64,000 bases of DNA from an uncultured Bacillota bacterium (lineage in GTDB: Bacteria; Sysuimicrobiota; Sysuimicrobiia; Sysuimicrobiales; Segetimicrobiaceae), in the NCBI GenBank assembly GCA_963804645.1, contig CAWDRG010000009.1:716693-780692 (forward strand). The letters run 5' to 3'. Below the pieces are notes generated by a model. It had not been told where the DNA came from and made no database searches. It worked only from the letters and a program-made list of their open reading frames with translations. Below, in pieces: positions 3,755 to 64,000 of the stretch; position 1 is the first letter of the stretch; the number at the start of each line of letters is the position of its first letter. The position numbers were made by a program, and so were the translations under genes.

Positions 3755-3783
3755 TTGACAGGCGATGCTGATCTTGGGATAAT
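3755..3783 (+). promoter_or_regulatory. promoter of tRNA-Val
   Basis: Consensus -35 TTGACA, 17-nt spacer, -10 GATAAT, about 28 nt upstream of the mature tRNA 5' end. Confidence 0.55.
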
Positions 3784-3811
3784 GTTGGGTGCTCGCGATC
3801 GCGGCGTCTGG

Positions 3812-15599: not shown

Positions 15600-16175
15600 C
15601 CTGCGTCGCACGTCAAGGCGTACTGCCGTACACGTCGGCTGGAGCTCGGTGACAATCGAGGACCTCGATTCGGTCACAGCTCACGTGGCGCAGGGACCGG
15701 TCCCGACGAGCTCGGTGAGGGGCTTCGCCCCGGCGCCGTCGACGAGCTCGTTGGGCATCATCGCGGAGGCCCCGGCCGGCGGCGGCATCAGCGACAGCAG
15801 CGGGGCGAACGGTGTCTTGAGCTTCAGCACCACCGTGTCGCTGCCGGAGGCCGTGACCGACTCGACCGACTGCTACACGAACGTGCCGTACGAGTTGACC
15901 CGGCCCCACCGATTCAGCGAGGCGATCACATCGTCCGGCCCCATCGTCTTGCCGTTGTGGAACGGGACGTTCCGCCGGAGCGTGAACGCGTACGTCAACC
16001 CGCCCTTGCTGACCTCGTAGCCGGAGACGAGCGAGGGCTGCACGCGCCAATTGGCATCGAACGCGAACAGTTCCTCGAATACGCCGAGCGTCATGTTCGC
16101 CGTGAGCGAGGCCGGCTGGACGATCACGTCGAGCGTGAGCGGTTCGCCGACCGCGTCGATGCCTCTCAGACTCAC
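15600..16175 (-). pseudogene. ABC substrate-binding protein family 5 (Dpp/Opp-type) remnant
   Basis: N-terminal family-5 SBP motifs (FEELFAFDANWRVQPSLVSGYEVSKGGLTYAFTLRRNVPFHNGKTMGPDDV) terminate prematurely. A downstream piece with LVGTGP lies in another frame and about 60 aa too close, indicating deletion plus frameshift. Confidence 0.5.
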
Positions 16176-28225: not shown

Positions 28226-28252
28226 CTCTTCCCTCCCGGTTGGTCCGGCGGA

Positions 28253-29068
28253 TCAGCTCGCGTAGTCGGCGATGTGCTTTTTCATGCGGGCGGCGAGGCG
28301 CTCGACGTTGCGCTCGAGCCGCGCCGCGCCCTCTTCACGCGTCGCCAAGCGCGGGTCTTCCTCGGCGGGGAGCATGAAGTCGGGGGTCGGGTGCCCGTCG
28401 AACGCGGCGCCGTTGACGATGCCGAAGTCGCGGTAGCGCAGCGGCGTGCCCTTGGGCGGCAGCGCGCTCAGATCGACGCTGCCCGGCGCCTCCACCATCA
28501 TGAACGCGGTCTCGCCGCGTCCGGCGTGCCCCGGATCCTGGCCGGCCGGGGCGGGGGAGCCGCCCGCCGATTCGTACAGGACGGTGACCCGCGGCGTCTC
28601 GTTCTCCTCCAAGGCGACGCGGCGCAGCGCCCGCTGGTGGTTCGGGGCGCCGTGCCCGTTGATGATGACGATCAGCCGCCAGCTGTCCTGCTTCAGCAGC
28701 CGGACGATCTCGCGCACGACGACGGCGAACGTCCCTTCCTCGATGTAGAGGCTCTTGACGGGGAAGCCCGGGAAGTCCATGCCGACGACCCGCTCGTGCC
28801 CTTCGAAGCCGAGCGGGCGCAGGCCCTGGGGGCCGTCCGGGACGCGCACGGTCTCGGAGCCGAGGTGGTAGGCGGGGAGGACGACCCCGCCGACACGCTT
28901 GGCGACTTCGACGGCGACCCGATGGGCGGCCATCGCGTCCGTGCCCATGGGCATCGCGGGGCCGTGCCACTCGAGCGGCCCGAACGGCACGTACACGACC
29001 GGACAGCGCCGGCGCGCCTCCGCGATCTGCGGGGGGCGCATCAGCTCAAACTCGACCAACTCTGCCAT
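28253..29068 (-). CDS. creatininase-family amidohydrolase
   Basis: Creatinine amidohydrolase family metal-binding motifs (PFGPLEWHGP...GTD, INGHGAPNH). Confidence 0.8.
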   Translation of the reverse strand: MAELVEFELMRPPQIAEARRRCPVVYVPFGPLEWHGPAMPMGTDAMAAHRVAVEVAKRVGGVVLPAYHLGSETVRVPDGPQGLRPLGFEGHERVVGMDFPGFPVKSLYIEEGTFAVVVREIVRLLKQDSWRLIVIINGHGAPNHQRALRRVALEENETPRVTVLYESAGGSPAPAGQDPGHAGRGETAFMMVEAPGSVDLSALPPKGTPLRYRDFGIVNGAAFDGHPTPDFMLPAEEDPRLATREEGAARLERNVERLAARMKKHIADYAS

Positions 29069-29152
29069 GGGATCCTCCTCTGGAAACGCGGCTGCGCGGC
29101 CGCGCGGCGCGTCCGGACGGCTCCGCGCGGCTCACTGCTCCGTACCGGGCGG

Positions 29153-30622
29153 TCACGAAGACGTTTCGTCGTACCCCGCGACGTTCGTGATGATCGGGTG
29201 CCAGTCGAACTTGGTATCGAGCGGGTAGATCGGCCGCGTCACCTGCCGGTACGGCAGCCGCGTGAAGTCCATGTCCGCGTAGCCCGGGGTCAGGGCGAGG
29301 ATTTCCCTCGGCGCGATCGCCCGGATCGGCGCCATGAGGTAGCCGAGCTTGATCACCACCATCTTGTGCTTGAGCGGATCGATGCCCGCCTTCTTGAAGT
29401 CGTCCGGGTGCCGGTAGATGTACCGCCGGTCGGAGAGGATGACCCGGATGCCGTTCGCGTTGAGCGTCGCGAGCCTCGCGTCCCACGCCCCGGCCGCCGG
29501 CTGGTACAGATGCTCCACCGTGCCGGTCAGTTTGACGGGTCCGCCGCGGACCGTGTCGAGCTTGCCGCCGACCTCCACGGTGACCTTGGCGCCCTGCCCC
29601 GCCTTGAAGCACGCGTCGGTCGCGACGGCGTCGGGAAACCCCGCGACGACCGCGTCCGGCACCTTCTTGGCCACGAGCCGCGCCAGGAAGTGCGTCGAGT
29701 CGCCGGGTGCGCCCGCGGTCGGGTTGTCGCCGGAGTCCGCGATGAACACCGTGCGCTCCGACTTGAGCGCCTGGTCGATCGCCTCGTCGGCGGTCGCGGC
29801 GACCTCCTGGTCGAACACGAAGTGCTCGCGCTGATCCCACATCGCCTGCGCCATCCGGCGCGCCTGGCGGCGCGCCAGCGGGAGGGCCGCGTCGTTCTCG
29901 GCGGTCACGAGGACGTTGGCGCCGGCGTGCCAGGTGTCCGCCCACCCGAAGCCGATCAGCACCTCGGCGTTCAGGATGCCCGGCATCTGCTCGATCTCGA
30001 GCGCCATCTTGAGCATCGACTTCATCGGCTCGACCGCCATCGTGGACCGCTCGCCCGGCAGCAGGAGCGGAATGCGGATGAACACCGGCCGGGGCCGCAG
30101 CCGCCCGCGGACGACCTTCGTCAGGATGCCGAGCGTGCGCTGCAGCGTCTCGGGCGCGTCGGCGTGGGGCGCTGTGCGGAAGCACGCCCAGGTGTCGGCC
30201 TTGTTCGCGAACTCCTCGGTCAGGTTCGCGTGGGGATCCAACCGCACGGCGATCGGCAGGTCGCGCCCGACGGCCGCCCGGATCATCCGGACCTGATCGG
30301 TCTCGCCGCTCCAGACGTTCTCGACGAGCATCGCGCCGTGCAGGATCATGCAGATGCCGTCGAGCTTGCCGGCGTCCCGCAGCCGGGCGAGCGTCTCGTC
30401 CCGCAGCTCGAGGTACGTCCGCTCCTGCACCACGCCGGAGGGACAGCGAGCCGACGCGACGAGCAGCGGCACCGGCTCAAACTCGAACTTCTTCGCGGCC
30501 TCCGCCAGTCCGGCGTAGCCGAGGATGTCGGGCTCCCGCAGGACCCGGAAGTCCTCCATCGTCTGCGGGATGGGCGAAAACGTGAGAGCCTCGTGGCTGA
30601 TGCCGGCGATGCCGATGCGCAT
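29153..30622 (-). CDS. M81-family metallopeptidase (MlrC-like; DUF1485 + MlrC C-terminal domain)
   Basis: 489 aa. N-terminal MRIGIAGISHE and an overall architecture matching the microcystinase C (MlrC) family. Confidence 0.75.
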   Translation of the reverse strand: MRIGIAGISHEALTFSPIPQTMEDFRVLREPDILGYAGLAEAAKKFEFEPVPLLVASARCPSGVVQERTYLELRDETLARLRDAGKLDGICMILHGAMLVENVWSGETDQVRMIRAAVGRDLPIAVRLDPHANLTEEFANKADTWACFRTAPHADAPETLQRTLGILTKVVRGRLRPRPVFIRIPLLLPGERSTMAVEPMKSMLKMALEIEQMPGILNAEVLIGFGWADTWHAGANVLVTAENDAALPLARRQARRMAQAMWDQREHFVFDQEVAATADEAIDQALKSERTVFIADSGDNPTAGAPGDSTHFLARLVAKKVPDAVVAGFPDAVATDACFKAGQGAKVTVEVGGKLDTVRGGPVKLTGTVEHLYQPAAGAWDARLATLNANGIRVILSDRRYIYRHPDDFKKAGIDPLKHKMVVIKLGYLMAPIRAIAPREILALTPGYADMDFTRLPYRQVTRPIYPLDTKFDWHPIITNVAGYDETSS

Positions 30623-30632
30623 GCGTTCCCTC

Positions 30633-31502
30633 CTATTTGATCGCGCCGCTTCCCAGTCCCTGGACCACCCACCGCTGCAGGAGCACGAAGATGACCACGA
30701 GCGGGAGGCTGGACATGGTGGTGAGCGCCATGATGCCGTTCCAGTCGCGCACGTACTCGCCGAAGAACGAGGACATGCCGACGGTCAGCGTCTGCGAGTG
30801 CGTGGTCTCCGTGAGCACGACGGCGAGGAGATACTCGTTCCAGGCGCCGATGAAGATGAACGCGGCGACCCCTACGACCCCCGGCACGGCGAGCGGCGCC
30901 ACCACCTTCCAGAGCGTCTGGAGCCGCGTGCACCCGTCGATGAGCGCCGCTTCGTCGAGCTCGTGCGGAATCGAATCCAGGTAGGCCTTGATGAGCCAGG
31001 TCGACAGCGGCAGGAGAAACGCGGTGTTGGCCACGATCAGGCCGGGCACCGTGTCGTACAGCCCGACGACGTGGGCGAGGCGGAAGTACGGGATGATCAG
31101 GACGACCCGTGGCAGCATGAGGAGGCTCAGGATCGCCATCAGCATGACCTGGCCGCCGGGCAGCCGGAACCGGGAGAACCCGTAGGCCGCGAGCGAGCCG
31201 AAGAACAGCGCGAGGACGAGCGCGCCGAACGACAGCTCAATGCTGTTCTTGAAATAGGACTGGTACGTGGGGTTGTTGAGGATCTTTTCGAAGTACACGA
31301 GCGTGATCGATCTCGGCCACAGGACCGGCGGGTAGTTGAGCACTTCCCGGATCGGCCGCACGGCCGCGCTCACCATCCACGCGACCGGCACCAGGATCAG
31401 CACGGTCGAGAGGACCGTGAGGCCGACGACCCAGATCTGCCGGGAGACCTCCGCACGGCGGCGGCGCGAGCCCGCGGCGGACGCGACCGTGGAGGCTACC
31501 AT
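30633..31502 (-). CDS. carbohydrate ABC transporter permease (MalG-like)
   Basis: 289 aa, six TM, EAA loop (LDEAALIDGCTRLQTLWKVVAPL). The tool ORF is N-terminally over-extended. Confidence 0.8.
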   Translation of the reverse strand: MVASTVASAAGSRRRRAEVSRQIWVVGLTVLSTVLILVPVAWMVSAAVRPIREVLNYPPVLWPRSITLVYFEKILNNPTYQSYFKNSIELSFGALVLALFFGSLAAYGFSRFRLPGGQVMLMAILSLLMLPRVVLIIPYFRLAHVVGLYDTVPGLIVANTAFLLPLSTWLIKAYLDSIPHELDEAALIDGCTRLQTLWKVVAPLAVPGVVGVAAFIFIGAWNEYLLAVVLTETTHSQTLTVGMSSFFGEYVRDWNGIMALTTMSSLPLVVIFVLLQRWVVQGLGSGAIK

Positions 31503-41431: not shown

Positions 41432-42538
41432 ATGACGGATCCCAGGATCGAGAAGCTCGCCCGCGTCCTGATCCACTACGCGCTCCGCCTGGAACCCGGC
41501 CAGCTCCTGCGCATCCGCGGGCCCGCGCTCGCCGCGCCGCAGATTCTCGCCGCGTATCGTGAGGCGCTGGTCGCCGGCGCGCATCCGACGGTGCGGATCA
41601 GCGTCGAGGGCCTCGACGACATCTACTACCGCACGGCCACGGACGACCAGTTGCGCTACGTCTCGGCGCTCGACCGGCACGAGGTCGAGACGCTCGACGC
41701 GGAGCTGTCGTTTCTCGGCGCCTACAACACCCGGGCGATGACGCGGGTCGATCCCGGCCGGATGCGGATGCGCCGCGAGGCGACGCGGGAGCTGAGCCAG
41801 CGGTTCATGGAGCGGGCCGGCGCGGGCACGCTGCGGTGGTGCCTCACGCAGGCGCCGACCCAGGCCGACGCCCAGGAAGCGGAGATGTCGTTCGGCGAGT
41901 ACGAGGCGTTTGTATACGGCGCGGGGCATCTCGATGAAGACGATCCGGTCGCGGCGTGGGAGCACGTCGCGCGCGAGCAGGCGGCCGTCTGCGAGCGGCT
42001 CGCGCGCATGCGGACCCTGCGCATCGTCGCGCCGGACACCGATCTGACCGTGCACGTCGCCGGCCGCAAGTGGATCAGCGCGGCCGGGACGCACAACTTC
42101 CCGGACGGCGAGGTCTTCACGGGGCCGGCGGAGGACGCGACGCGCGGCACCGTCCGCTTCAGCTTCCCGGCGCTGTACGGCGGGCGCGAGGTCACCGACG
42201 TGCGCCTCGTGTTCGACGGCGGACGCGTCGTCTCGGCGACCGCGGCGAAGGGCGAGCAGCTCCTCCAGGCGATGCTCGACGTCGACGCGGGCGCCCGGGT
42301 CCTGGGCGAGTTCGCGTTCGGCCTCAACTACGGCATCCAGCAGTTTACGCGCAACATCCTGTTCGACGAGAAGATCGGCGGGACGCTCCACATGGCGCTC
42401 GGGGCCGCGTACCCGGAGACCGGCGGGAAGAACACGTCCGGCCTGCACTGGGATATGATCCTGGATCTGCGGGAGAACGGCGCGGAAGTCTTCGCCGACG
42501 GCGAGGTCGTCTACCGGAACGGCCGCTTCCTCACGTAG
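41432..42538 (+). CDS. aminopeptidase, M29 family (AmpS/PepS/aminopeptidase T-like)
   Basis: 368 aa with M29 family hallmarks (LARVLIHYAL, GTHNFPDGEVFTGP, FDEKIGGTLHMALG). Confidence 0.8.
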   Translation: MTDPRIEKLARVLIHYALRLEPGQLLRIRGPALAAPQILAAYREALVAGAHPTVRISVEGLDDIYYRTATDDQLRYVSALDRHEVETLDAELSFLGAYNTRAMTRVDPGRMRMRREATRELSQRFMERAGAGTLRWCLTQAPTQADAQEAEMSFGEYEAFVYGAGHLDEDDPVAAWEHVAREQAAVCERLARMRTLRIVAPDTDLTVHVAGRKWISAAGTHNFPDGEVFTGPAEDATRGTVRFSFPALYGGREVTDVRLVFDGGRVVSATAAKGEQLLQAMLDVDAGARVLGEFAFGLNYGIQQFTRNILFDEKIGGTLHMALGAAYPETGGKNTSGLHWDMILDLRENGAEVFADGEVVYRNGRFLT

Positions 42539-42827
42539 GCCGCTCCCCGCCGCGCGCGCGCTCGACGCGCTCGAAGAGGGCGGCGAACTCGGCCTCGGTG
42601 CGCTCGGTCACCTCCTCCGCCATCTCGGCGTAGCGGCGTCCCTCACCCGCCTTGATCTGGATGTTGGAGAGGACGCGGCCCTCGAGCTCGCGGAGGAGTG
42701 CGAGCACGTCGTCGGCCGGGACGCTCCCCCAGTCGCCCGCGAGCACGCGGTCCACGAACTCGTCGAGCGGGCGGGCGTCGTCTTCGCACACCTGCGCGTA
42801 CAGCTCCCACAGGCGCGCGCTCATTCG
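42531..42827 (-). CDS. hypothetical acidic small protein (98 aa)
   Basis: ATG overlaps the upstream debranching-enzyme stop (ATGA). Acidic, helical sequence. Confidence 0.45.
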   Translation of the reverse strand, partial: RMSARLWELYAQVCEDDARPLDEFVDRVLAGDWGSVPADDVLALLRELEGRVLSNIQIKAGEGRRYAEMAEEVTERTEAEFAALFERVERARGGERPT

Positions 42828-44809
42828 CCTGCGCCCCCGAGTTCCCACGCCTCGAGCAGCGCGGCGACGCTCCACGCCTGGGCGATGCATCCGGCCGCGC
42901 CGTACGGGGACGCTCCCTCGAAGATCTCGCTCACGGTGCCGAGTCCCGCCTCCAGCAGGTGCGCCCGGAACGGCTCGATGAGGCGGCGCGCCGCCGCGCG
43001 GTCGCCGGTCGCGCGCACGAGCGCCGTCGCGTACGGGCCGAGCCACCACGCCCAGACCGTGCCCTGGTGGTACGCCTCGTCCCGGGAGACGACCCCGCCC
43101 CGGTACCGGCCGCGGTAGGCCGGGTCGTCGGGGGCGAGCGACCGCAGGCCGAACGGCGTCAGCAGCTTCGCTCCCACCGCGCCAAGTACCGCGCGGGCCG
43201 CCGGCCCGTCGACCAGCGCGTGGGGCAGCGAGAGCGCGAGCAGCTGGTTCGGGCGGAGCGACCGGTCGGGCGTGCCGTCCGGCGCGATGACGTCGTACAG
43301 GTAGCCGCCGGCGTCGTAGAAGAACGCGCCCGAGAACGCGCGGCGAACCGCGGCCGCGCCGCTGGCGTACGCGGTGCCGTCCCGGCCGAGCATCTCCGAC
43401 CAGCGCGCCGCGACACACAGCAGTTCGTGCCAGAGCGCGTTCAGGTCGACCGCTTTGCCCATGCGCGGCGTGATCGCGCGGCCGTTCACGCGGGCATCCA
43501 TCCAGGTCAGGGCGAGCCCGGGCTCGCCCGCGGTCAGCAGGCCGTCGGCCGGATCGACGCGGATGCCGTGGCGCGTGCCGGACCGGTACCGTTCCGCGAT
43601 CTCCCGGATCGCCGGGTACACTCGCTCGAGGAGCTCGCGGTCCCACACGCGCGCGAGGTACCGGTCGAGCGCGTGCGCGTACCACAACGCCGAATCCGCG
43701 CTCGTGTACTCCGGAGGGGCGCCGTCGTCCGGGAACCGGTTCGGCAGCATGCCCTCGCTCACCACGTCGGCGAAGGAGCGGAGGATCTCGCGCGCGTCGT
43801 CGAGCCGGCCGGTGGCGAGCGTAAGCCCGGGCAGCGAGATCATGGCGTCGCGCCCCCAGTCCTCGAACCAGTGGTAGCCGGCGATCACCGAGTGCCGGCC
43901 GGCGCCCTGGACGAGGAACGCGTCCGCGGCGAGGACGAGCGCGTCGCGGAGCCCGCCGGGCCCCGGCAGCGTCGTGGGATCGCGCGGGAGCGCGCCGGCG
44001 CGGTCGATCAGCGTCTGCTGCCGGCGGCGCTCGTCTTCGTAGGTGGTGCCGGCCGCGGACGCGTCCGGCTCCGCGGAGACGCGCAGGGTGAGGTCCTCTC
44101 CCGGCTCGAGCGACGCCTCGAACACGCCGGGCACGTAGAGGTCTTCGATCGCGTCGAGCCCGCGGTCGCGCTCGACGCGGTGCAGGACGCGCCAGTACCA
44201 CGCCGGGGAGTCCGCGAAGCGGCCGCGGTCCACCGTGAGCGTGTACGGGACGGCGCCGGGCCAGGGCGTGACGCGGATGCCGCCCGGGATCGGCGCGACG
44301 TCGAACTGCCACCCGGGGTCGCCGTAGGTGTGCGTGTGGTGATCGCGCTCGGTCAGGTAGGGCCGGATCGCCATGCGCAGCGCCGGGCCGCCCGGGAGCA
44401 GCCGGTACCGGACGCAGGCGGTGTTCCGTCCGCGCGGCATCCAGACCGCCTTCTCGAGCACGGCGCCGGAGACCGCGAACGTCCAGACGGGAATCGAGCC
44501 GTCGAGCCGGAAGCCCGCGAGCGAGCGGTACCCCTCCGGGTCGATCGTCCCGTCGGCGTACTCGTTCGTCCCGAGCTCGACGAGGCGGCCGCGTCCATCG
44601 CGGAGATCGATCGTCTCGTCGACCTTCGCGACCAGCACGGTGCGGCGGACGGGCGGGGCGAGCGCGGCGACGAGGAGGCCGTGATAGCGGCGGGTGGTCG
44701 CGCCGGACACGGTCCCGGACGCGTAGCCGCCGATGCCGTTCGTGACGAGCCACTCGCGGCGGAGCGCCGCGTCGAGAAACGAGAGGAGGGAGTCCGGCAG
44801 GCTCAGCAT
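42821..44809 (-). CDS. glycogen debranching enzyme family protein (amylo-alpha-1,6-glucosidase, GDE N- and C-terminal domains)
   Basis: 662 aa. N-terminal GDE_N-like region (TNGIGGYASGTVSGATTRRYHGLL) and C-terminal (alpha/alpha)6-barrel region with GYHWFEDWGRD, typical of archaeal-type GDE/GH133. Confidence 0.8.
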   Translation of the reverse strand: MLSLPDSLLSFLDAALRREWLVTNGIGGYASGTVSGATTRRYHGLLVAALAPPVRRTVLVAKVDETIDLRDGRGRLVELGTNEYADGTIDPEGYRSLAGFRLDGSIPVWTFAVSGAVLEKAVWMPRGRNTACVRYRLLPGGPALRMAIRPYLTERDHHTHTYGDPGWQFDVAPIPGGIRVTPWPGAVPYTLTVDRGRFADSPAWYWRVLHRVERDRGLDAIEDLYVPGVFEASLEPGEDLTLRVSAEPDASAAGTTYEDERRRQQTLIDRAGALPRDPTTLPGPGGLRDALVLAADAFLVQGAGRHSVIAGYHWFEDWGRDAMISLPGLTLATGRLDDAREILRSFADVVSEGMLPNRFPDDGAPPEYTSADSALWYAHALDRYLARVWDRELLERVYPAIREIAERYRSGTRHGIRVDPADGLLTAGEPGLALTWMDARVNGRAITPRMGKAVDLNALWHELLCVAARWSEMLGRDGTAYASGAAAVRRAFSGAFFYDAGGYLYDVIAPDGTPDRSLRPNQLLALSLPHALVDGPAARAVLGAVGAKLLTPFGLRSLAPDDPAYRGRYRGGVVSRDEAYHQGTVWAWWLGPYATALVRATGDRAAARRLIEPFRAHLLEAGLGTVSEIFEGASPYGAAGCIAQAWSVAALLEAWELGGAGE

Positions 44810-44846
44810 CGCGCGCCGCGCGGCCGCCGGGACCCGCGGCGTCGCG

Positions 44847-45767
44847 CTAGTGGCCCTCGAGATAGCGCTCGACGTCCATCGCGGCCATGCAGCCCCAGCC
44901 CGCGGCCGTCACCGCCTGGCGGTACCGCTGGTCGTGCACGTCGCCCGCGGCGAACACCCCCGTGATGTTGGTCATCGTGTGCTCGCGAAGCCGCACGTAC
45001 CCCTGCTCGTCCAGTTCGACCTGGCCGCGGAACAGCTCGGTGTTCGGATGGTGGCCGATCGCGAGGAACAGCCCGTCCACGGGAAACTGCTCGACCGCGT
45101 TCGTGCGGAGGTCGCGCAGTGCGAGGCCCGTGACCTTGTCGTCCCCCAGCACGTCCTCGATGACCGTGTTCCAGCGCACACGGATCTTGCCGTGGTTGAG
45201 CGCGCGCTCGGCCATGATTTTGCTCGCCCGGAACGCCTCGCGGCGGTGGAGAATCGTCACGCGGGTCGCGAACTTCGTGAGTACCAGTGCCTCCTCCATT
45301 GCCGAGTCCCCGCCGCCGACGACCGCGACCTCCTTGTTGCGGAAGAAGAACGCGTCGCACGGCGCGCACGAGGAGACGCCGTGGCCGATCAGGCGCTGCT
45401 CGTTCGGCAGCCCGAGCCAGTTGGTGCCCGCCCCGGTCGCGATGATCACCGACTCGCTGGTGAGCGTCCGGCCCCCCACGGCGATCTCGAACGGGCGCCG
45501 GCGCAGCTCGACCGCGGTCGCGTCCTCGTCGATGAAGTCGACTTCGAAGCGCTCCGCCTGCCGGCGCATGACCTCCATCAGCTCCGGCCCCTGGATGCCG
45601 TCCGCGAACCCCGGGAAGTTCTCGACGTCGGTCGTCATCGTGAGCTGCCCGCCGCGCTGGCTGCCCGAGATCACGAGCGGCCGCAGCTGCGCGCGGGCGG
45701 CGTAGACGGCCGCGGTCAGTCCCGCGGCGCCCGACCCGATGATGACCACCTTGAGCGTGTCCGCCAT
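44847..45767 (-). CDS. trxB: thioredoxin-disulfide reductase
   Basis: FAD motif GSGAAG, redox-active CAPC (SSCAPCD), NADPH motif GGGDSA. GGAGGTG SD. Confidence 0.9.
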   Translation of the reverse strand: MADTLKVVIIGSGAAGLTAAVYAARAQLRPLVISGSQRGGQLTMTTDVENFPGFADGIQGPELMEVMRRQAERFEVDFIDEDATAVELRRRPFEIAVGGRTLTSESVIIATGAGTNWLGLPNEQRLIGHGVSSCAPCDAFFFRNKEVAVVGGGDSAMEEALVLTKFATRVTILHRREAFRASKIMAERALNHGKIRVRWNTVIEDVLGDDKVTGLALRDLRTNAVEQFPVDGLFLAIGHHPNTELFRGQVELDEQGYVRLREHTMTNITGVFAAGDVHDQRYRQAVTAAGWGCMAAMDVERYLEGH

Positions 45768-45862
45768 GCCGTGCACCTCCCGGCGGGGGTGGTCCCGCCG
45801 CCTGCTTTCACAACGTGTCCGGCCCGCGAATTCTTCCCCGCCCGGGGAGGCCCGCCGCGCGA

Positions 45863-47311
45863 TCAGGCGCGGGCGGCGAGCACGCGGTGGTGCTGGACGA
45901 AGTTCGTCCGGCCCCGCGCTACGATCGGGACCGAGCCCATGATCACCACGGCGTCGCCGGGGCGCGCGAGGTGCCGGTGGAGCAGCTCCCGGTCGACCGC
46001 CCGGATCATCGCCTCCGTGCTGTGCTGGAACGGCACGACGAGCGGCCGGACGCCCCAGCAGACGCTCAGGAGGCGCGCCACGCGCTCGTCCTCCGTGCAC
46101 GCGAGGGCGGGGACCGAGGGGCGGAGGCGCGAGATCGCCCGGGCCGCCCGGCCGGTCGTCGTCAGCACGACGATCATGCGCACCCGGCAGTCCTCGGCGA
46201 TCTCCTGCGCGGCGGACGCGATCGACTGTAAGAGTGTCGGGCGCGCGAGCGGGCCGGGACCGTCGAAGCGCGTGCCGGCCTCGACCGCCTGCGCGATCCG
46301 CACCATCGTCGCGACGGCCTGCACGGGGTACCGGCCCACCGCGGTCTCGGCCGAGAGCATCACCGCGTCGGTGCCGTCGAGGATCGCGTTCGCAACGTCG
46401 GAGGTCTCGGCGCGCGTCGGGCGCTCGTCCCGCACCATCGACTCGAGCATCTGCGTCGCGGTGATCACCGGGACGCCCCGGTCGTTCGAGACGCGGATGA
46501 TCCGCTTCTGGAGCAGCGGGACCTGCTCCGGCGGCAGCTCGACGCCGAGGTCGCCGCGGGCGACCATCACGGCGTCGGACGCGGCGACGATCTCCTCGAG
46601 GTTGCCGATCGCCTCGAAGCGCTCGAGCTTCGAGACGATCGGGACCGACCGCCCGAGCCGGCGCATCACGCGCCGGGCGTTCTGGAGGTCCCGGGCCGAG
46701 CGGACGAAGCTCAGCGCCACGAAGTCGACGCCCGCGCGCAGTCCGTAGCGAAGGTCCGCGAGGTCCTTCGGCGTGAGCGACGGGCCGCGCAGCGGCACCC
46801 CCGGCAGGTTGACGCCCTGGTGGCTGTCCAGCACGCCGCCCTCGACGACGCGGCACCGGACCTCCTGGCCTGCGCGGCCGAGTGCGAGGAGCTCGATCAT
46901 CCCATCGCGCAGCAGGATGCGCTGGCCGCGGCGGACGAGGCCGGTGAATCGGGGAAACGCGATCGGGATCCGCTCCGCGCCGCCGATCACGCGCCGCGTG
47001 GTCAGGATCACCTCGTGGCCCGGGACGAGGTGCACGGGATGCGCGAGGCGGCCCACCCGGATCTTCGGGCCCTGCAGGTCTTGCAGGATCGCGAGCGGCG
47101 CGTCGGCGCGGCGGGCGACGCTCCGGAGGCGCGCGATCAGGCGTCCGTGGTCGGTGCGTGCGCCGTGGGAGAAGTTGATCCGCGCGACGTCCATCCCGGC
47201 CGCGAGCAGGCGCTCGAGCACCTTCTCGCTGTCGCTCGCGGGGCCGATCGTCGCGACGACTTTCGTCCCGTGGGAAGTGATGGGGCGCGGTACCGCGTGC
47301 GCGCTCGGCAT
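45863..47311 (-). CDS. pyk: pyruvate kinase
   Basis: TKVVATIGPAS, MVARGDLGVE, and the C-terminal allosteric domain. GGAGGAG SD. Confidence 0.9.
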   Translation of the reverse strand: MPSAHAVPRPITSHGTKVVATIGPASDSEKVLERLLAAGMDVARINFSHGARTDHGRLIARLRSVARRADAPLAILQDLQGPKIRVGRLAHPVHLVPGHEVILTTRRVIGGAERIPIAFPRFTGLVRRGQRILLRDGMIELLALGRAGQEVRCRVVEGGVLDSHQGVNLPGVPLRGPSLTPKDLADLRYGLRAGVDFVALSFVRSARDLQNARRVMRRLGRSVPIVSKLERFEAIGNLEEIVAASDAVMVARGDLGVELPPEQVPLLQKRIIRVSNDRGVPVITATQMLESMVRDERPTRAETSDVANAILDGTDAVMLSAETAVGRYPVQAVATMVRIAQAVEAGTRFDGPGPLARPTLLQSIASAAQEIAEDCRVRMIVVLTTTGRAARAISRLRPSVPALACTEDERVARLLSVCWGVRPLVVPFQHSTEAMIRAVDRELLHRHLARPGDAVVIMGSVPIVARGRTNFVQHHRVLAARA

Positions 47312-47551
47312 CAGGAACCACTCCTCCCCGCGGCCGTCCGGGCTCGCGGGACGCGGACCCGCATCGTGCCGTTCCTGCGTGACGGTCCGGGCATGTGCCA
47401 TCGTCCCCACGACAGGTCTTCGCCGCGGGACCGCCCATTCCCGACCAGGCGGCGAATATTGTTGGCGCGGGTCGGGGGAGGAGCGCGGCGCGGGCGGATG
47501 CAATTGCAGGAAGGGCCGCGGTACGGCGCGTTCGGCGGCCGGGAGATGGGC

Positions 47552-47857
47552 ATGGCGATCATGGCGATCAGCGTCACCCCGGTGGGGACGGGGTCCCCGA
47601 GCGTGGGGGCCTACGTGGCGGAAGCGGTGCGGGTGCTCGAGGAGAGCGGCCTCCGGTACGAGCTGCGCGCGATGCACACCGAGGTCGAAGGGGATCTGGA
47701 ACGGCTGCTCGCGCTCGTGCCCGAGATCCACCGCGCGTGCTTCGCGCTCGGGGCCCAGCGCGTGTCCACCGTGATCAAGATCGACGAGCGCCGGGACGCC
47801 CCGTCGTCGATCGCGGGCAAAGTGCGGTCGGTCGAGCACCGCCGCCGGCGCGCGTAG
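47552..47857 (+). CDS. MTH1187/YkoF-family (DUF77) protein
   Basis: MAIMAISVTPVG...YELRAMHTEVEGDLERLLALV fits the DUF77 thiamine-binding/ion-tolerance fold. Start is chosen at the ATG with the best SD spacing. Confidence 0.6.
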   Translation: MAIMAISVTPVGTGSPSVGAYVAEAVRVLEESGLRYELRAMHTEVEGDLERLLALVPEIHRACFALGAQRVSTVIKIDERRDAPSSIAGKVRSVEHRRRRA

Positions 47858-47871
47858 GCGGCACCCGGGCG

Positions 47872-48483
47872 ATGGGCGGATTCGCCTCCGGGTGGCTCGA
47901 GCGCTGGTTCGAGCGCACCTACAAGATTCAGCCGATCGGCTCGGGCGGGTATATCCTGCGCATCGGGTTGATCCGTTATCGCGGTCCTCGCGTGGAGCTC
48001 GCCGACGGGACGGTCGTCACCGCGGGCGATACCGTGGGCGAGCTTCACATGGACAACGCGCGGGCGCAGGCCCTGCACCAGGAAGGGCACGGCGGCCTCA
48101 AATTCCGCCGCGAGGTCTTCCGGGCGCTGCCCGCGCTCGGGGCCGAGCTCTCGATGAAGCCGGAGTACGGACCGGTGCAGGCGTTCTGCGGTGCGAGCTT
48201 GTTCTGGCACGGGGCCGCCCGGGCCGGATTCGAGGACCGGCCGCTCCCGGCGTTCGAGCGGTGGTGGCTCACGTGGTGGGAGCGCCACTTGATGGCGAGA
48301 TACCATCCCGAGGGTCGACAGCGCCTCGACGAAGGAAATCGGACGGAACTGCGCCAGATCTGGATCAGCCGGAAGACGCTGCTGCGCTACGCGGAGGCGG
48401 CGGCGCGGCGCGGCGGGGCCGCGGACGGCGCGGCTGCCCCACAGAGTTCCGCGGAGGCCGGCGCGGACGACCGGGGCGGGTGA
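47872..48483 (+). CDS. hypothetical protein (Trp-rich, WW-ERH motifs)
   Basis: Clean ORF following the DUF77 gene. No confident family assignment. Confidence 0.45.
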   Translation: MGGFASGWLERWFERTYKIQPIGSGGYILRIGLIRYRGPRVELADGTVVTAGDTVGELHMDNARAQALHQEGHGGLKFRREVFRALPALGAELSMKPEYGPVQAFCGASLFWHGAARAGFEDRPLPAFERWWLTWWERHLMARYHPEGRQRLDEGNRTELRQIWISRKTLLRYAEAAARRGGAADGAAAPQSSAEAGADDRGG

Positions 48484-58646: not shown

Positions 58647-58721
58647 GCCGGCGTAGCTCAGCGGTAGAGCAGCTCATTCGTAATGAGCAGGTCATCGGTT
58701 CAAATCCGATCGCCGGCTCCA
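58647..58721 (+). tRNA. tRNA-Thr (anticodon CGT)
   Basis: Manual cloverleaf: acceptor GCCGGCG/CGCCGGC, D-arm GCTC-AGCGGTA-GAGC, anticodon arm GCTCA-TTCGTAA-TGAGC, T-arm ATCGG-TTCAAAT-CCGAT, discriminator T, encoded CCA. Confidence 0.9.
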
Positions 58722-58860: not shown

Positions 58861-59349
58861 GTGAAGCTTCTGATCATACGCCACGCGATTGCCGTCGCTC
58901 GGGACACGGCGCAGGTGCCGGACGAGGATCGTCCGCTCACCGAATACGGGAAGCGACGCTTCAAAACGGCGGCGCGCGGTTTGGTCCGAATCTGCGGGCG
59001 TCCAGACCTGCTGCTGACGAGCCCGCTCCTCCGTGCCGTAGCCACGGCTGAGATAGTCGCCGAAGCATGGGGCGGGATCACCCCGACCCATGAACCAATT
59101 CTCGCCCACGGCAGCCCGCAGGACCTCATCAACGTACTGTCGCAGCATACGGCACACCAGAAGATCGCCATCGTGGGGCACGAACCGTTGCTTTCGGGGT
59201 TGCTGGCCCGGTTGTTGGGTAGCGGGGAGCACCGAAGCCTTACCCTTCGAAAAGGCGGGGTCGCCCTCGTCGACATACCAGGCCCGCCCTCGGAGGGAGG
59301 ACGACTCGACTGGTTGCTGCGTCCGAGGATCCTCCGCGAGCTCGCATAG
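58861..59349 (+). CDS. histidine phosphatase-family protein (SixA-like phosphohistidine phosphatase)
   Basis: GTG start 5 nt after AGGAGG. LLIIRHAIA (RHG motif) and the conserved His in IVGHEP. Confidence 0.75.
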   Translation: MKLLIIRHAIAVARDTAQVPDEDRPLTEYGKRRFKTAARGLVRICGRPDLLLTSPLLRAVATAEIVAEAWGGITPTHEPILAHGSPQDLINVLSQHTAHQKIAIVGHEPLLSGLLARLLGSGEHRSLTLRKGGVALVDIPGPPSEGGRLDWLLRPRILRELA

Positions 59350-59465
59350 ACCTCTGCAGCGTACCGCTGCGCGCTCGTGCACCTTCCCGGCGCTTCCTTT
59401 GCTGAAAAGACAACCTGGACTTTGTCGGGATACTGTCAGAGCAGCGCACTCAGAAGGCGCGGGTC

Positions 59466-59490
59466 ACGAGTTCGAATCTCGTCGGCGGCT
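59466..59490 (+). other. orphan tRNA 3'-half (T-arm + acceptor 3' strand) without a matching 5' half
   Basis: ACGAG-TTCGAAT-CTCGT followed by CGGCGGC-T. No complementary GCCGCCG within 120 nt upstream. Differs from both tRNAs in the window. Confidence 0.4.
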
Positions 59491-60040
59491 CTAGTGTTTA
59501 GCAAGGGTTTCCGCACGTTCCATCCAGCCGTCCCCCGCGCTTTGCGTAATCTTACTAATCCGCGCGTCGGAGCCCGACCCCAGCATCCGTTCAGCCACGA
59601 GTGCTGCCGGCCGTGCATCTGCTGGTGATGTGGGCGCCACCGGATCCACGGACCGAGCGTCCATTCGGGACTGCTGGACCCGTCCGTCGGGTGTTCATCG
59701 CCTGTGGATGTTGAGCAGTGCCAGTGTGCTCGATGCGGCCGGCACCTGCGAACACCTTCGCACCAGAACCGTCGGGCGCGGTGAGCCGTGGTCGGTCACG
59801 GCGCGCACGCTCGAAGTGCGCGCCGGCGACGGGCTGGCGCCCGATGCCGTGCAGGCGCTGCGGCGGACCGTCCACAAGGAATAGGTTCTGAGATGGGGCC
59901 AGACCATCGAGTGTGCAACTCTGCACAGTGGGCCAATTCGTGCCGTGCTACACTCAACACAAAGGGGTGCTTGCTGAATCGGCAGGCGGTACCTCTTGCG
60001 TCAGCCGACGAATCTCAGAGAGGGAAAGGGAGGAACGGCC

Positions 60041-60274
60041 ATGGCGCTCGACAACGATCGGAACCGTGTGTTGGCCTCGCTACGAGATCGATCGGAAAGC
60101 GTCGACTGCGCTGCTTTGGCCCAGATCGTTGGGCTCGCCCAACAAGCGGTGGAGCGTCATGTCCTCTACTGCGCGGACTACGGTCTGGCCACATGGAAGC
60201 GGCAGCGCGATGGCTTGGGGCGGGTGGCGATTACTGCCAGGGGCCTCGACTATTTGGGCCGGCAGAGCCTGTAG
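60041..60274 (+). CDS. small winged-helix-like DNA-binding protein (77 aa)
   Basis: SD AAAGGGAGGA 6 nt upstream. MALDNDRNRVLASLRDRSESVDCAALAQIVGLAQQAVERHVLYCADYGL is wHTH-like. Sits in a lower-GC block. Confidence 0.45.
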   Translation: MALDNDRNRVLASLRDRSESVDCAALAQIVGLAQQAVERHVLYCADYGLATWKRQRDGLGRVAITARGLDYLGRQSL

Positions 60275-61018
60275 GACGCCCGATCGGATGCCCATCGAAC
60301 TTGGTGGCGCGTTCGGTCACCCACATCCATGTTCACCGCGCCTTTACGCAAATCATGGACATCTGGCCTTAGGACACAATCTGTGGCGAGGTGCCCCGTG
60401 GGCAAATACATCCGGGCGAAGTCTGGGTTACCGTGGCCCGTGAGCGGAACGTATGTCTGCGATAAGTGCCACGCGCGCACACGAGCCGCATCGGTGTCAT
60501 CGCACCGCGATGTCCCACCCCTCGTGGAGACCAGCGTGCGTGTAATTGTGCCTACTTCGTGTTGAGTGAAGATGCTCGCCGCCAAGATGACACGTCGCAA
60601 AGCCTCAAGGTGACTGCATCACGTGATGCGGCGCCACCGATGCCCGGTACTGTCCTGATAGGATACTTCCCAACGAAGCACGTGCGTCGCGTCGTCAAGG
60701 GAGGCAAGCAAGCACTCCACGCCTGAACCGCCAGTGCCACCGCTGCCGTGGTAGCGGATACAGCGGACGGCAGCATACGAACAAGACGCAGCCGCCGGTA
60801 ACGTAGATCCAGCACCAATCTGAGCTTACATCTTGGCGTGTGCCTCTGGAGTGAGCGAGATGTCGTCCACGACCATGCGTATCGAGGACTACGGACAATA
60901 AGCGTCTCTACACACACCAGTTGGCAGACGTTTGCTCGCCGAGTCGATGGTCTAAGATTAGGGGCGGTTCAATCGGGCAAGGTTATGCGGGCCGCGAGGC
61001 GCTGCGCGGGAGGGACCG

Positions 61019-62062
61019 TTGATGAAAGCTGTGAGGAAGCTCGCTCCCGGATTTGGACATGTGGATTATGTTGACGTTGCGAAACCGGAACTTACACGTG
61101 GATATGTGACGTTGCAGGTGGAGGCAGCCGGGATCTGTGGTACGGACCTGCATATTCACGATGGCGAGTATGCAAGTCAGCCACCTGTCACGATGGGTCA
61201 CGAGGTATCTGGAACCGTATTCGAAGTCGGTGAAGGGGTGACTGGATGGCGGCCGGGCGATCGTGTCACCACAGAGACTTTCTTTTCCGTGTGCGGCCGA
61301 TGCCGATACTGTCGAGGTGGGCAGCCCAATCTCTGCCCGGAGCGCCACTCGATCGGATCTGGGGCCAATGGAGGGTTTGCAAGGTACCTTATGGTGCCCG
61401 CGAGTAACCTTCACTTGCTTCCCAATGAAGTGTCATTTGCGGCGGGGGCTCTCACGGAACCCCTCGCTTGCTGCGTGCATGCCGTTCAACGCGCGGGCGT
61501 TGTTGTTGGGGATGTGGTTCTCGTCTCAGGCCCTGGCCCGATTGGACTCCTATGCGTGCAACTCGCCCGTATCGCAGGGGCGCACGTGGTCGTTACGGGA
61601 ACCGACGCGGATGCGATCCGGTTGAAAAAGGCCGCCGCTTTAGGAGCGCACACGGTGCTGAACACTCAGCATGACCCCGAGAAACTCAGGCCCGTAGTTG
61701 GGGAACTCACGGATGGGGCCGGGTTTGATGTCGTGATGGAGTGCGCCGGCGCACCGGCGTCAGCAGCCAGTTGTCTCGCCTTCGTACGCCGTGGCGGCCG
61801 CTACGCGCAGCTGGGTCTCTACGGAAAAACGATCCCGATTGACCTCGACGCAGTGTGTTTCAAGGAGCTGACGGCCACAGGGACATTTGCTCAAATTCCG
61901 TCGGCGTGGCAGACGGCGATAAGGCTGATGGCTTCGGGCCAAGTAAGCACGGAATCCTTGATTTCCGAAATGGTCCCGCTATCACAGTGGGACAGGGCAT
62001 TCGACAGTCTCCGTCGGAAGAACGCGATCAAGATCTGCCTCTTCCCAGACGCTGACAATTGA
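61019..62062 (+). CDS. zinc-dependent alcohol dehydrogenase (MDR family; threonine/sorbitol dehydrogenase-like)
   Basis: Catalytic Zn ligands (C..GTDLHIHDGE...GHEVSG), structural Zn CGRCRYC...C, Rossmann motif GPGPIGL. Noticeably lower GC and atypical codons. Confidence 0.85.
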   Translation: MMKAVRKLAPGFGHVDYVDVAKPELTRGYVTLQVEAAGICGTDLHIHDGEYASQPPVTMGHEVSGTVFEVGEGVTGWRPGDRVTTETFFSVCGRCRYCRGGQPNLCPERHSIGSGANGGFARYLMVPASNLHLLPNEVSFAAGALTEPLACCVHAVQRAGVVVGDVVLVSGPGPIGLLCVQLARIAGAHVVVTGTDADAIRLKKAAALGAHTVLNTQHDPEKLRPVVGELTDGAGFDVVMECAGAPASAASCLAFVRRGGRYAQLGLYGKTIPIDLDAVCFKELTATGTFAQIPSAWQTAIRLMASGQVSTESLISEMVPLSQWDRAFDSLRRKNAIKICLFPDADN

Positions 62063-62324
62063 GCGGTCCACCCGGCGTCGTGGCGCCATAGATCCTTGTC
62101 CGAGTCCAGAGTGACGTGCTGATTCCGTGAATCTCGCGGGCGACCTCTCTACATCGCACGTCAGATGGGGCGGTTGTGGGAGATTCCCCGAAAACGCACT
62201 CGGAATACGCACGCCAGTGGCCGGATCTCCATGTCCACTCCGGATTTCCGCACCAAGCTGACGGATTCCGCTCGGGACTCCTTCGTATACGGTGGTCGTG
62301 TCTTCCCCACGGTGTCGCCCACTT

Positions 62325-62420
62325 CTCGCGATCGAGACGCGGGATCTCGACTCGGCGTGCCACCACCTCAAGATGCTTCGCGACAGTGCCCCGCCGCGCC
62401 ACCAGTCGGGCGGGCTCTGA
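62325..62420 (+). pseudogene. fragment duplicating the 3' end of the XRE/TPR regulator gene (compare 2821-2916)
   Basis: About 85% nucleotide identity over ~96 bp, by hand alignment, to the last 32 codons of the 1618-2916 gene. Reads IETRDLDSACHHLKMLRDSAPPRHQSGGL* versus AIETRDLDAARHQLKMLRDSAPPHHPSSGF*. No upstream coding continuation. Confidence 0.6.
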
Positions 62421-62542
62421 GTTCCGGAATGCGCCGCGGCACGGCGCCGACGGGTCGCGCAGAGACGCCGCTCCACCGGCAGGATCGTTCTTACGCGCCT
62501 CCGAAGGGTGCCCACGCCGACGGGCTGAATCGGGGAGGCGGT

Positions 62543-63922
62543 ATGTTCGATCTGGTGATTCGGGGCGGCACCCTCGTCACGGCGGGGCAGACCGGCGTGG
62601 CCGACGTTGGCATTGAAGAGCAGCATGTGGTGCAGATTGGCGGCGAGATGCGCGGACGGCGGGAGATCGCCGCGGCGGGCCTGTACGTATTTCCTGGCGG
62701 TGTCGACGCGCACGTGCACCTGAGCCAGCCCGCGCCGCCCGCGCCCGGGCGTGAGTTGTGGGTAGATGACTTCTTCAGCGGCTCCCTCGCCGCGATCGCT
62801 GGCGGGGTGACCACCGTTGGCAACATGACGTTCCAGTGGCCGGGCGAAACCCTCGTGGACGCCCTCGAGCGGGATCTCAAGGCGGCCGCCCGCGAAGCCG
62901 CGGTGGATGTCATTCTGCACCCGGTTCTCACGGAACCAACCGACGCCGTGATCGCCCAGATCCCCGCGCTCGCGGATTCCGGCCACACGAGCCTTAAGAT
63001 CTTCATGACCCGCTCCAACTTCGAGCCCCAGCTTGAGCGGTATCTCGAGGCGATGCGCCAGGCCGGGATGGCGAAGATGCTGACCCTGGTGCACTGTGAG
63101 GATGGGGCGGTGATGCGGTTCGTCCACCAGCGGCTCGCGGCCGAGGGGCGCGATGCTGTCCGCTACTATCCGGACAGCCGGCCGGTGTACACCGAGGCGA
63201 GCGCGACGGAACGTGCGATCGCGATGGCCCAGGCAGCAGGCGCTCCGATCTACGTCGTGCACCTTTCATCGGCGGCGGCGCTCGCACACTGCAGACGCGC
63301 CCGCGCCGCGGGCGAGCGGGTGTACGTCGAGACGCGGCCACTCTACCTATACCTGACGCGGGAGCGGTTCGAGGAGCCGGATGGCGCGAAGTACGTGGGC
63401 GCCCCGGCCCTTCGGGAGCCGGCCGACGTGGCGGCGCTCTGGGGCGGCCTCGAAAGCGGCGACATTCAGTGCGTCTGCACCGATCATGCACCGTGGAACC
63501 TTCGCCAGAAGCTCGACCCCACGCTGACCGTCGCGAACGCGCGACAGGGGGTCGCGGACCTCGAAACCCTGATGCCGATGCTGTTTTCGGAGGGGGTCGT
63601 GAAGCGGGGCCTGTCCCTCAGCCGGTTCGTGGAGCTCACGAGCACGAACGCCGCCAAACTCTTCGGCCTGTACCCGCAGAAAGGCACGATCGCCGTCGGC
63701 GCCGACGCCGATCTCGTGGTATGGGACGCCAAGCAGCGCCGCAGGATCGACGGTGCGTTGATGCAGTCCCGTGCGGGTTATTCCGTGTACGACGGGCTCG
63801 ATGTGCAGGGATGGCCAGCGTACACGATCAGCAGGGGAGAAGTCGTGCTGGACCATGGAACCATCTCTGCGCCGCGGGGCCGCGGCCGGTGGGTGAGGCG
63901 GGGCCCGACAGCAGCGCTCTAA
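62543..63922 (+). CDS. dihydropyrimidinase/D-hydantoinase-family cyclic amidohydrolase
   Basis: Metal-binding motifs GGVDAHVHL, carboxylated-Lys region SLKIFM, HCED, CTDHAP. GGGGAGG SD precedes MFDLVIRGG. Confidence 0.85.
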   Translation: MFDLVIRGGTLVTAGQTGVADVGIEEQHVVQIGGEMRGRREIAAAGLYVFPGGVDAHVHLSQPAPPAPGRELWVDDFFSGSLAAIAGGVTTVGNMTFQWPGETLVDALERDLKAAAREAAVDVILHPVLTEPTDAVIAQIPALADSGHTSLKIFMTRSNFEPQLERYLEAMRQAGMAKMLTLVHCEDGAVMRFVHQRLAAEGRDAVRYYPDSRPVYTEASATERAIAMAQAAGAPIYVVHLSSAAALAHCRRARAAGERVYVETRPLYLYLTRERFEEPDGAKYVGAPALREPADVAALWGGLESGDIQCVCTDHAPWNLRQKLDPTLTVANARQGVADLETLMPMLFSEGVVKRGLSLSRFVELTSTNAAKLFGLYPQKGTIAVGADADLVVWDAKQRRRIDGALMQSRAGYSVYDGLDVQGWPAYTISRGEVVLDHGTISAPRGRGRWVRRGPTAAL

Positions 63923-64000
63923 CCGCCTCGACCACGGCCTATTGCTGGTGCCCGGCTCCCCGGGGACAGATTGGATAGAGCGAATTTAGGTTTGCACACT

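Follow-up and report, generated by a model that had tools for sequence, protein, structure and literature searches.

Is the GC-poor patch behind a threonine tRNA gene of an uncultured Bacillota bacterium (assembly GCA_963804645.1, contig CAWDRG010000009.1, positions 716,693 to 780,692) the remnant of an integrated element, and if so, where does that element begin and end? We analysed the whole 64-kb stretch, called the window below. All positions are coordinates in this window, and L018 and L021 to L026 are labels of comparison contigs. An initial annotation had proposed a decayed element at this place, bracketed by an orphan tRNA 3' half on the left and by a duplicated gene 3' end on the right. 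Half of this picture stands: the islet, now known to be real and precisely delimited in this uncultured high-GC soil bacterium, is a discrete, strain-variable unit of ~2.8 kb (59443-62216) that is foreign in composition and has a tRNA-like left end, but its right boundary lies at 62216 and not at the gene copy. We favour, with moderate confidence, the reading that 59443-62216 is a horizontally acquired, decayed integrative islet with a tRNA(Thr-like) attachment site. The phenomenon itself is ordinary; bacterial genomes often carry scars of this kind.

A discrete unit that varies between strains

Homologues of the dehydrogenase protein encoded in the islet led to the contigs L021 (ENA, 10.2 kb), L022 and L023 (JGI). 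Window positions 59445-62216 correspond to L021 208-3167, with ~45 substitutions and a few indels (~98.4% identity), and both L022 and L023 share the right end of the islet with the window. Overall, the islet occurs in other metagenome contigs at ~98-99% identity, in two left contexts and three right contexts. The left flank of L021 is unlike that of the window, with the break at ~59443. The right flanks of the window, L021 and L023 are mutually unrelated, and all of them diverge at one base, ~62217. The window's left junction (tRNA-Thr, a SixA-like gene, the tRNA-like remnant and the start of the block) is seen independently in the JGI contig L018, at 98%.

The flanks of L021 are low in GC (0.53-0.66) and in GC content at third codon positions (GC3), as is the islet, and the right flank encodes a PhdYeFM/PIN pair and other small accessory genes. 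The pair (L021 3235-3960) consists of a PhdYeFM antitoxin with a frameshifted PIN-domain toxin, and forms a 0.87-kb unit between the second and third tRNA-like repeats of that contig (third repeat, L021 4004-4057). A DUF433/DUF5615 pair and further small accessory genes lie farther to the right. Judged by its translation, the L023 right flank seems to hold an antitoxin gene of the XRE type.

A more distant relative, L026 (83-85% nucleotide identity), is collinear with the window through globin, cupredoxin, tRNA-Thr and SixA up to window position 59373, and keeps tRNA-Thr(CGU) with one D-loop difference. After SixA it carries a different gene, without a repeat and without the islet. We take this gene (L026 2804-3850) to be HNH-type nuclease-like from its translation; it has no NCBIfam match. 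Since L026 carries another gene at this point, the site appears to receive different accessory genes in different lineages. The SixA-like gene itself is native, as shown by its graded series of homologues (99, 85, 71 and 69%) and its synteny in L026, and the variable spot begins 24 bp past its stop, downstream of tRNA-Thr(CGU), where synteny ends (59373). The initial annotation had left it to related genomes to show whether the block is inserted, and in these it is not syntenic: L026 has tRNA-Thr and SixA and then the other gene, while L024 and L025, discussed below, have a regulator-hydantoinase order and no block. A block that is found elsewhere with other flanks and is absent in a relative is a discrete unit varying between strains. 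A synteny search of species-representative genomes via the hydantoinase was uninformative (best matches 68-71%, no common neighbours, no tRNA-Thr).

Composition also sets the islet apart. Its GC content is 0.609 vs 0.675 for the whole window, and it is the lowest-GC 2774-bp stretch of the 64 kb, with 0.2% of all stretches of that length equally low. The GC drop first described at 59.5-62.1 kb is therefore genuine and the deepest in the window, but the contrast drawn with about 70% elsewhere is true for 42-56 kb alone; 1-24 kb is at ~0.65. From 56.6 kb on, total GC is already reduced, and the genes there (globin, DUF420-cupredoxin) have a normal GC3 of 0.84-0.89. Formal analysis finds a non-uniform composition in tetranucleotides (distance of 59.5-62.0 kb, z=2.8, rank 2 in the window), in GC and in GC3.

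The reduced total GC from 56.6 kb on, together with an unremarkable GC-normalised dinucleotide signature of the block, could be taken to mean that this is native DNA of odd composition, and the tRNA-like piece a decayed duplicate of a local tRNA. The block is nevertheless absent at the syntenic site of L026 and present elsewhere with different flanks, and its dehydrogenase gene has a GC3 2.2 standard deviations under the window mean. We give native origin practically no credence.

tRNA-like repeats at the islet ends

What, then, marks the ends of the unit? The left repeat is composed of an anticodon arm (GCGCA-CTCAGAA-GGCGC), a variable loop, a perfect T arm, and an acceptor 3' strand with discriminator. 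The T-arm and acceptor fragment without a 5' half that had been noticed at 59466-59490 (ACGAG-TTCGAAT-CTCGT-CGGCGGC-T) is confirmed, and the remnant is longer than first described. The Rfam tRNA model aligns to 59432-59490 (18.3 bits, E 4.2, under the gathering score of 29), covering the anticodon arm and variable loop as well, without a D arm and without a proper 5' acceptor strand; ARAGORN makes no tRNA call for 59432-59490. A perfect 5-bp stem around TTCRANY has a chance expectation of 0.06 per window.

The right repeat is an eroded second copy of the anticodon-arm part, with its core, AAAACGCACTCGGAA, at 62191-62205. The same exact 15-mer is found twice in L021 (204-218 and 3142-3156), whose first two repeats (196-255 and 3133-3189) are both clear. 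A third L021 copy (4008-4034), which stands after the PhdYeFM/PIN toxin-antitoxin pair, has 3 mismatches in the 15-mer (4008-4022) and an identical ACGCACTCGGAATGCGC core. The second and third L021 copies run on into increasingly degenerate T-arm and acceptor sequence; among the copies, the anticodon-arm part is better conserved than the T-arm part.

A profile built from the repeat copies recovers them at E values of 4e-14 to 5e-11, and its sole other match is tRNA-Thr(CGU) (E 0.0017); tRNA-Val is not matched. In Smith-Waterman comparison the L021 repeats score 36-47 vs a null mean of 14, and these scores are reached by 2-7 of 3000 random windows, which are probably the window's own repeat copies. 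Within the window the repeats are too eroded for significance, and it is the comparison with L021 that carries the case for them. In its 3' part, the repeat matches tRNA-Thr(CGU) without gaps at 37 of 48 positions, more than any other in a small sample of 8 tRNAs. When the window and L021 are compared, the left repeat differs at 4 of its first 19 positions (the anticodon-arm part) and at none of the next 37 bp, which fits a crossover or junction inside the repeat. Based on these alignments, we interpret the repeats as tRNA 3' portions.

As to which tRNA, the loop can be derived about as parsimoniously from Thr(CGU) as from Met(CAU), and Thr is preferred by overall similarity (37/48) alone. An origin from transfer-messenger RNA (tmRNA) was rejected: the remnant has no Rfam tmRNA match, and its acceptor end, CGGCGGCU, looks by eye unlike the GGGG.../...CUCCA ends of tmRNA. 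The repeat core had no match in viral scans.

The regulator fragment belongs to a relocated module

The right edge of the element had been placed at an ~85% copy of the last ~96 bp of a regulator gene that lies near the start of the window. Such a copy exists. Positions 62325-62420 match 2821-2916 at 82 of 96 bases (85%), in frame and with the stops aligned; the homology over 62322-62426 breaks off sharply on both sides, and tblastn of the regulator on the copy recovers residues 401-432 (E 1.5e-9). It begins ~105 bp past the end of the islet, at the left end of a sharply delimited 1.61-kb module (62322-63931) that consists of the regulator 3' end, a spacer, a dihydropyrimidinase gene and 9 bp beyond. 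The GC3 of the dihydropyrimidinase gene (0.80) is of the native type.

Homologues of the regulator (98, 89, 88 and 78%) led to the relatives L024 and L025. In both, the order is rhodanese, regulator and then directly a 459-aa amidohydrolase, without the islet, and L025 2744-4363 aligns continuously with window 62322-63931 (81%). L025 4454-4870 corresponds to window 2990-3410, which we call region X. L025 is thus arranged as regulator-hydantoinase-X, and the window as regulator-X, then 59 kb, then copy-hydantoinase. Comparison of these orders indicates that the 96-bp copy is a vestige of an old adjacency of regulator and hydantoinase. By this collinearity, the copy is neither an edge of the islet nor an attachment scar, as had been thought, but the left end of the relocated module. 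The module may have reached the variable spot as a copy, or anew from a relative, with loss of the original behind the regulator. The 105-bp piece is nearly equidistant in three comparisons (89/105 between copy and window regulator, 90/105 between window regulator and L024, 87/105 between copy and L024), which suggests that the relocation is old. The histories of the "tRNA half" and of the "gene 3' copy" are unrelated.

These observations bear on two readings that give the regulator copy a part in an insertion. As originally conceived, one element left the tRNA half as its left scar and the 96-bp copy as its right scar; both features do exist, and they bracket low-GC DNA. The homology of the shared block, however, stops at 62216 and not at 62325, and the copy is continuous with spacer and hydantoinase exactly as in L024 and L025. 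In addition, one site-specific insertion duplicates only its own target; as an element cannot leave scars of two different targets at its ends, the two-edge logic fails. We consider this version highly improbable.

Prophages in protein genes carry surrogate 3' ends, as e14 and phage 21 do in icd of E. coli. The regulator offers a similar picture, a full gene plus a second, diverged version of its last ~100 bp that is displaced but equally oriented. This would make the 59.4 kb between the regulator stop (2916) and the copy (62322) an element inserted in the regulator 3' end. The 105-bp direct repeats in one orientation, with the full gene on the left and a displaced-looking fragment by the hydantoinase on the right, fit such an insertion, as does the contiguity of regulator and hydantoinase in relatives. 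Unlike the icd case, though, the copy is joined to dihydropyrimidinase, the regulator's follower in relatives, and the DNA between gene and copy is 59 kb of ordinary chromosome rather than an inserted element. The interval encodes pyruvate kinase, a DEAD-box helicase, a glycogen debranching enzyme, gamma-glutamyltranspeptidase and ABC transporters, has no integrase, and is syntenic in L026 from globin to SixA. Region X follows the hydantoinase in L025 and the regulator in the window; hence it is not element DNA. A 59.4-kb element, for which we see hardly any chance, is ruled out on gene content and, decisively, by the adjacency of hydantoinase and X in L025. The copy is a relic of gene relocation and not an attR.

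Region X (2917-3811) contains no non-coding RNA at Rfam gathering scores. A hairpin, GCCGCCCC-TTCG-GGGGCGG, stands at 2923-2941 directly after the regulator stop, at the point where homology to the regulator-hydantoinase spacer of the relatives stops.

Gene content of the islet

Two genes in the islet are intact (Table 1). The start of the zinc-dependent dehydrogenase is an ATG one codon after a TTG. Its GC3 of 0.62 is the lowest among 50 open reading frame (ORF) calls (mean 0.84, standard deviation 0.10). AAA makes up 50% of its Lys codons vs 19% in reference genes, GGA 29% vs 13% of Gly, and GTA with GTT 39% vs 9% of Val; overall, AAA, GGA, GTT/GTA and ACA/ACT are two to five times commoner than in 31 reference genes of the window. 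Of the three codons that the initial annotation had named as atypical, AAA and GGA are thus elevated, but TTA occurs once. No NCBIfam equivalog cutoff is reached by the protein, the nearest models being L-threonine and L-iditol dehydrogenase. Apart from self matches, the closest homologues share 63-68% identity, followed by a group at ~55% from Chloroflexota metagenome-assembled genomes. Distant homologues sit behind MR_MLE dehydratases in sugar-acid operons; the gene here is an orphan. The dehydrogenase gene is the cargo gene of the islet, and its codon usage is foreign.

The second intact gene encodes a small winged-helix protein. Its AlphaFold2 model (pLDDT 84.7) has an H-H-H-beta-beta-H topology and superposes on MarR-type winged helix-turn-helix cores (TMq ~0.8). 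The protein has weak helix-turn-helix (HTH) matches in Pfam and PHROG and no match in viral scans. Its family is very small: a search of 1.84 billion representative proteins at E<=1e-3 gave 11 clusters, all of ~55-100 aa. Between the window and L021 the gene shows 1 synonymous change in 234 bp, and the dehydrogenase gene 5 substitutions in 1041 bp, 2 of them non-synonymous; the flanking non-coding DNA differs by ~2.5% and by indels. Both genes therefore appear to be under purifying selection. For annotation, the two are to be regarded as recent horizontal acquisitions in a strain-variable hot spot and not as core metabolism.

The remaining coding trace is an amidohydrolase pseudogene, which has a 219-bp internal deletion at 60670/60671 compared with L021, L022 and L023. 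The corresponding L021 ORF (1303-1677) matches Amidohydro_1/3 and positions 321-395 of 398 of NCBIfam XaaProDiPepCaul. The conserved ORF 59494-59884, which is called as a gene in L021, was treated as non-coding, since the window and L021 differ in it by 13 substitutions, a 27-bp indel and a 1-bp indel.

No integrase, relaxase or conjugation gene was found in the islet unit. A six-frame Pfam scan of 59350-61021 at E<=1 contains no recombinase or transposase, which bears out the initial annotation on the lack of an integrase. Plasmid and phage collections gave no match (blastn 'distant'), and a scan of 58.5-62.7 kb for promoters and terminators returned none exceeding shuffle expectation. The non-coding DNA of the islet contains a perfect 9-bp GC hairpin, GGCGCGCAC-GCTCGAA-GTGCGCGCC, at 59801-59825; it was a chance find of the T-arm motif scan on the minus strand, and its 3' arm carries two L021 substitutions.

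Table 1. Features of the islet, its surroundings and the relocated module (window coordinates)
Feature	Position	Strand	Evidence or remarks
XRE-HTH and TPR regulator, full length	1618-2916	+	Pfam HTH_3, TPR
Intact tRNA-Thr(CGU)	58647-58721	+	ARAGORN; Rfam 72.7 bits; native
SixA-like phosphohistidine phosphatase	58861-59349	+	Pfam His_Phos_1; NCBIfam sixA 67 bits, under cutoff
Left repeat (DR-L), tRNA-like remnant	59437-59492	+	Rfam tRNA alignment; nhmmer repeat profile E 5e-11; junction alignment
Small stand-alone winged-helix DNA-binding protein, 77 aa, intact	60041-60274	+	AlphaFold2 model; L021 comparison
Amidohydrolase pseudogene, Xaa-Pro-dipeptidase-like C-terminal stub	60571-60726	+	L021 comparison
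Zn-dependent medium-chain dehydrogenase (ADH), intact	61022-62062	+	Pfam ADH_N, ADH_zinc_N
Right repeat (DR-R), eroded second copy of anticodon-arm part	62182-62237	+	nhmmer E 2.9e-11
Regulator pseudo-3' end (last 31 codons and stop)	62322-62426	+	89/105 identical to 2818-2922
Dihydropyrimidinase/D-hydantoinase	62543-63922	+	NCBIfam TIGR02033 396 bits vs cutoff 393

Proposed origin and decay of the islet

How could such a unit have arisen? Direct repeats of a tRNA 3' portion, a foreign and variable segment, the lack of recombination genes and a tandem unit together suggest integration at a tRNA site and then deletional decay. In the scheme that we favour, the islet would be what is left, with few genes, of an integrative element of the integrase type, or else a single unit from a tandem array of such elements. 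The crossover would have been at or just 3' of the anticodon arm of a tRNA(Thr-like) site, and the junctions would have been made by a tyrosine integrase. The left repeat, from the anticodon arm to the acceptor end, and the eroded anticodon-arm copy on the right would be the remains of attL and attR. In the order of events that we envisage, deletions would then have removed the integrase and most of the cargo, leaving over the winged-helix regulator gene, the amidohydrolase stub and the low-GC3 dehydrogenase.

The islet can be compared with Islander-type islands in tRNA and tmRNA genes (Williams 2002; Hudson et al. 2015, PMC4383910), whose ends are marked by the regenerated tRNA gene (tDNA) and its displaced fragment, and whose attP sites are centred on the anticodon in about half of all cases (PMC4383910). 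As in those islands, the islet repeats consist of the 3' portion of a tRNA, are direct and keep its orientation, and the block of identity opens with the anticodon arm, as in the anticodon-centred attP class. The segment is also of foreign composition, varies in presence among relatives and lies downstream of a tRNA gene. A displaced tDNA fragment is present at the other end in the same orientation (62182-62237, +), although it is not significant within the window alone. In contrast to Islander islands, neither the window nor L021 has a regenerated intact tRNA or tmRNA at one end of the unit, the proximal end in particular, and no integrase lies inside it: the ORFs of the islet are those of the winged-helix protein, the dehydrogenase and the amidohydrolase stub. 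Moreover, the native SixA gene stands between the islet and the nearest intact tRNA-Thr, erosion has affected the distal repeat, and the source tRNA of the repeats was not found.

A second comparison is with cis-mobilizable elements (CIMEs) and the tandem accretion of integrative elements (Pavlovic et al. 2004; Bellanger et al. 2011; review PMC5704250). The islet resembles CIMEs in having lost the genes for integration and transfer. The repeats at its two ends may be counterparts of attL and attR; both stand out clearly in L021, and in the window the right one breaks off behind the anticodon-arm part. The islet also occurs in tandem with a second repeat-bounded unit, and strains differ in what adjoins it at the att-type junction. 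It differs from CIMEs in that no partner integrative conjugative or mobilizable element was seen, and in its host, which is an uncultured high-GC soil bacterium and not a streptococcus. The repeats might still be usable in trans or in cis in the manner of CIMEs, and the three right neighbours of the same unit are an indirect hint of cis mobilisation. If the repeats are active, the locus would consist of integrase-less units that are shuffled in an uncultured soil lineage.

Several observations weigh against integration at a tRNA site. In neither the window nor L021 does the left repeat include a tRNA 5' half, so there is no end with a regenerated tRNA. The nearest intact tRNA-Thr(CGU) lies ~720 bp upstream of the islet, and SixA, which is syntenic in L026, stands between the two; the 3' half of this tRNA is identical in L026. 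With a native SixA and an unchanged tRNA 3' half, there is no sign that the tRNA-Thr gene itself was a recent target. An intact tRNA that the remnant could have come from, for which the initial annotation proposed a search of the genome, did not emerge: none was found with the remnant's 3' half (ending GGTCACGAGTTCGAATCTCGTCGGCGGCT), and the exact 25-mer of that half has no match in IMG/VR and occurs in one JGI contig, L018, of the same species. The repeat copies share the loop CTCGGAA (anticodon CGG, A37), an unnatural anticodon loop. Compared with each other inside the window alone, the left and right repeats show no significant similarity (Smith-Waterman 17; 444 of 3000 random windows score as high). 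The right junction of the window (62217-62321) is spanned by no independent contig, no integrase was seen among the called genes of the window or of the 10-kb L021 contig, and the GC-normalised dinucleotide signature of 59.5-62.0 kb is not extreme (z=1.6).

The native SixA, the unchanged tRNA-Thr 3' half and the lack of an integrase would also fit a foreign block that entered the hot spot downstream of SixA by homologous or illegitimate recombination, for instance as part of an island array from another strain; the repeats would then be old scars from the donor and would have had no role in this insertion. In keeping with such an entry, unrelated sequence fills the 63-69 bp from the end of synteny (59373) to the left repeat, ~85-105 bp lie between the right repeat and the next recognisable feature, and L026 has a different accessory gene without a repeat at this spot. 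The three right flanks, however, diverge at an identical base inside the repeat, and the left divergence is also inside a repeat. Such a shared base would be unexpected if the repeats were uninvolved in the exchanges. We regard entry by general recombination as unlikely, although it is the main rival of the reading that we favour.

Could the repeats instead be the recombination site of a cassette array? The motif ACGCACTCGGAA(TGCGC), 12-17 bp long and hairpin-like, followed by a degenerate tRNA-like tail, might serve for the stacking of cassettes, with a recombinase encoded elsewhere swapping small units at a fixed point; it would then be a tRNA-derived functional analogue of the integron attC. 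The three L021 repeats bound units of 2.9 kb and 0.87 kb, the second merely a toxin-antitoxin pair, flanks are exchanged at one fixed point, and the conservation of the anticodon-arm part over the T-arm part would be in keeping with this. Integron arrays likewise have short, imperfect, hairpin-prone repeats that separate small units, including toxin-antitoxin pairs. On the other hand, three members of the array were seen (two or three units), and the units hold pseudogenes and several genes rather than single promoterless ORFs. The islet has no integron-type integrase (intI), attI or Pc, and its repeats do not have the R''-L''/L'-R' structure of attC; they align to the tRNA model and to tRNA-Thr. 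The same picture results, without a new system, from tandem accretion and later deletion (PMC5704250). We consider the cassette proposal improbable.

In our reading of these comparisons, the locus is most like a tDNA-type island in decay, or like a CIME within a small tandem array, and is not an integron. A decayed islet of this type is invisible to integrase-based island finders, and here it was delimited exactly by comparison with short metagenome contigs.

Other features of the window

Mobile-element decay by a tRNA gene is seen at another place in the window. A frameshifted IS5-type transposase remnant (4217-5523, +) lies downstream of tRNA-Val(CAC) (3812-3886); its N-terminal domain is DUF772, and its C-terminal part, in another frame, looks DDE-like from the translation. 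Gene stubs include a 100-aa N-terminal piece of SBP_bac_5 (15873-16175, -) and a fragment of an FAD-dependent oxidoreductase (DAO; 6042-6758, +), and pseudogene remnants seem to be fairly numerous in this genome.

The top outlier of the window in dinucleotide signature is 42000-48000 (z=4.1), which also has the highest GC content (0.72-0.75). Encoded there are a glycogen debranching enzyme and a pyruvate kinase of 658 aa, extended at its N terminus by ~190 aa. A 1226-aa ORF at 26960-30640 (+) has a first-codon-position GC of 0.94 and no Pfam match, and is either a highly biased repetitive protein or no real gene.

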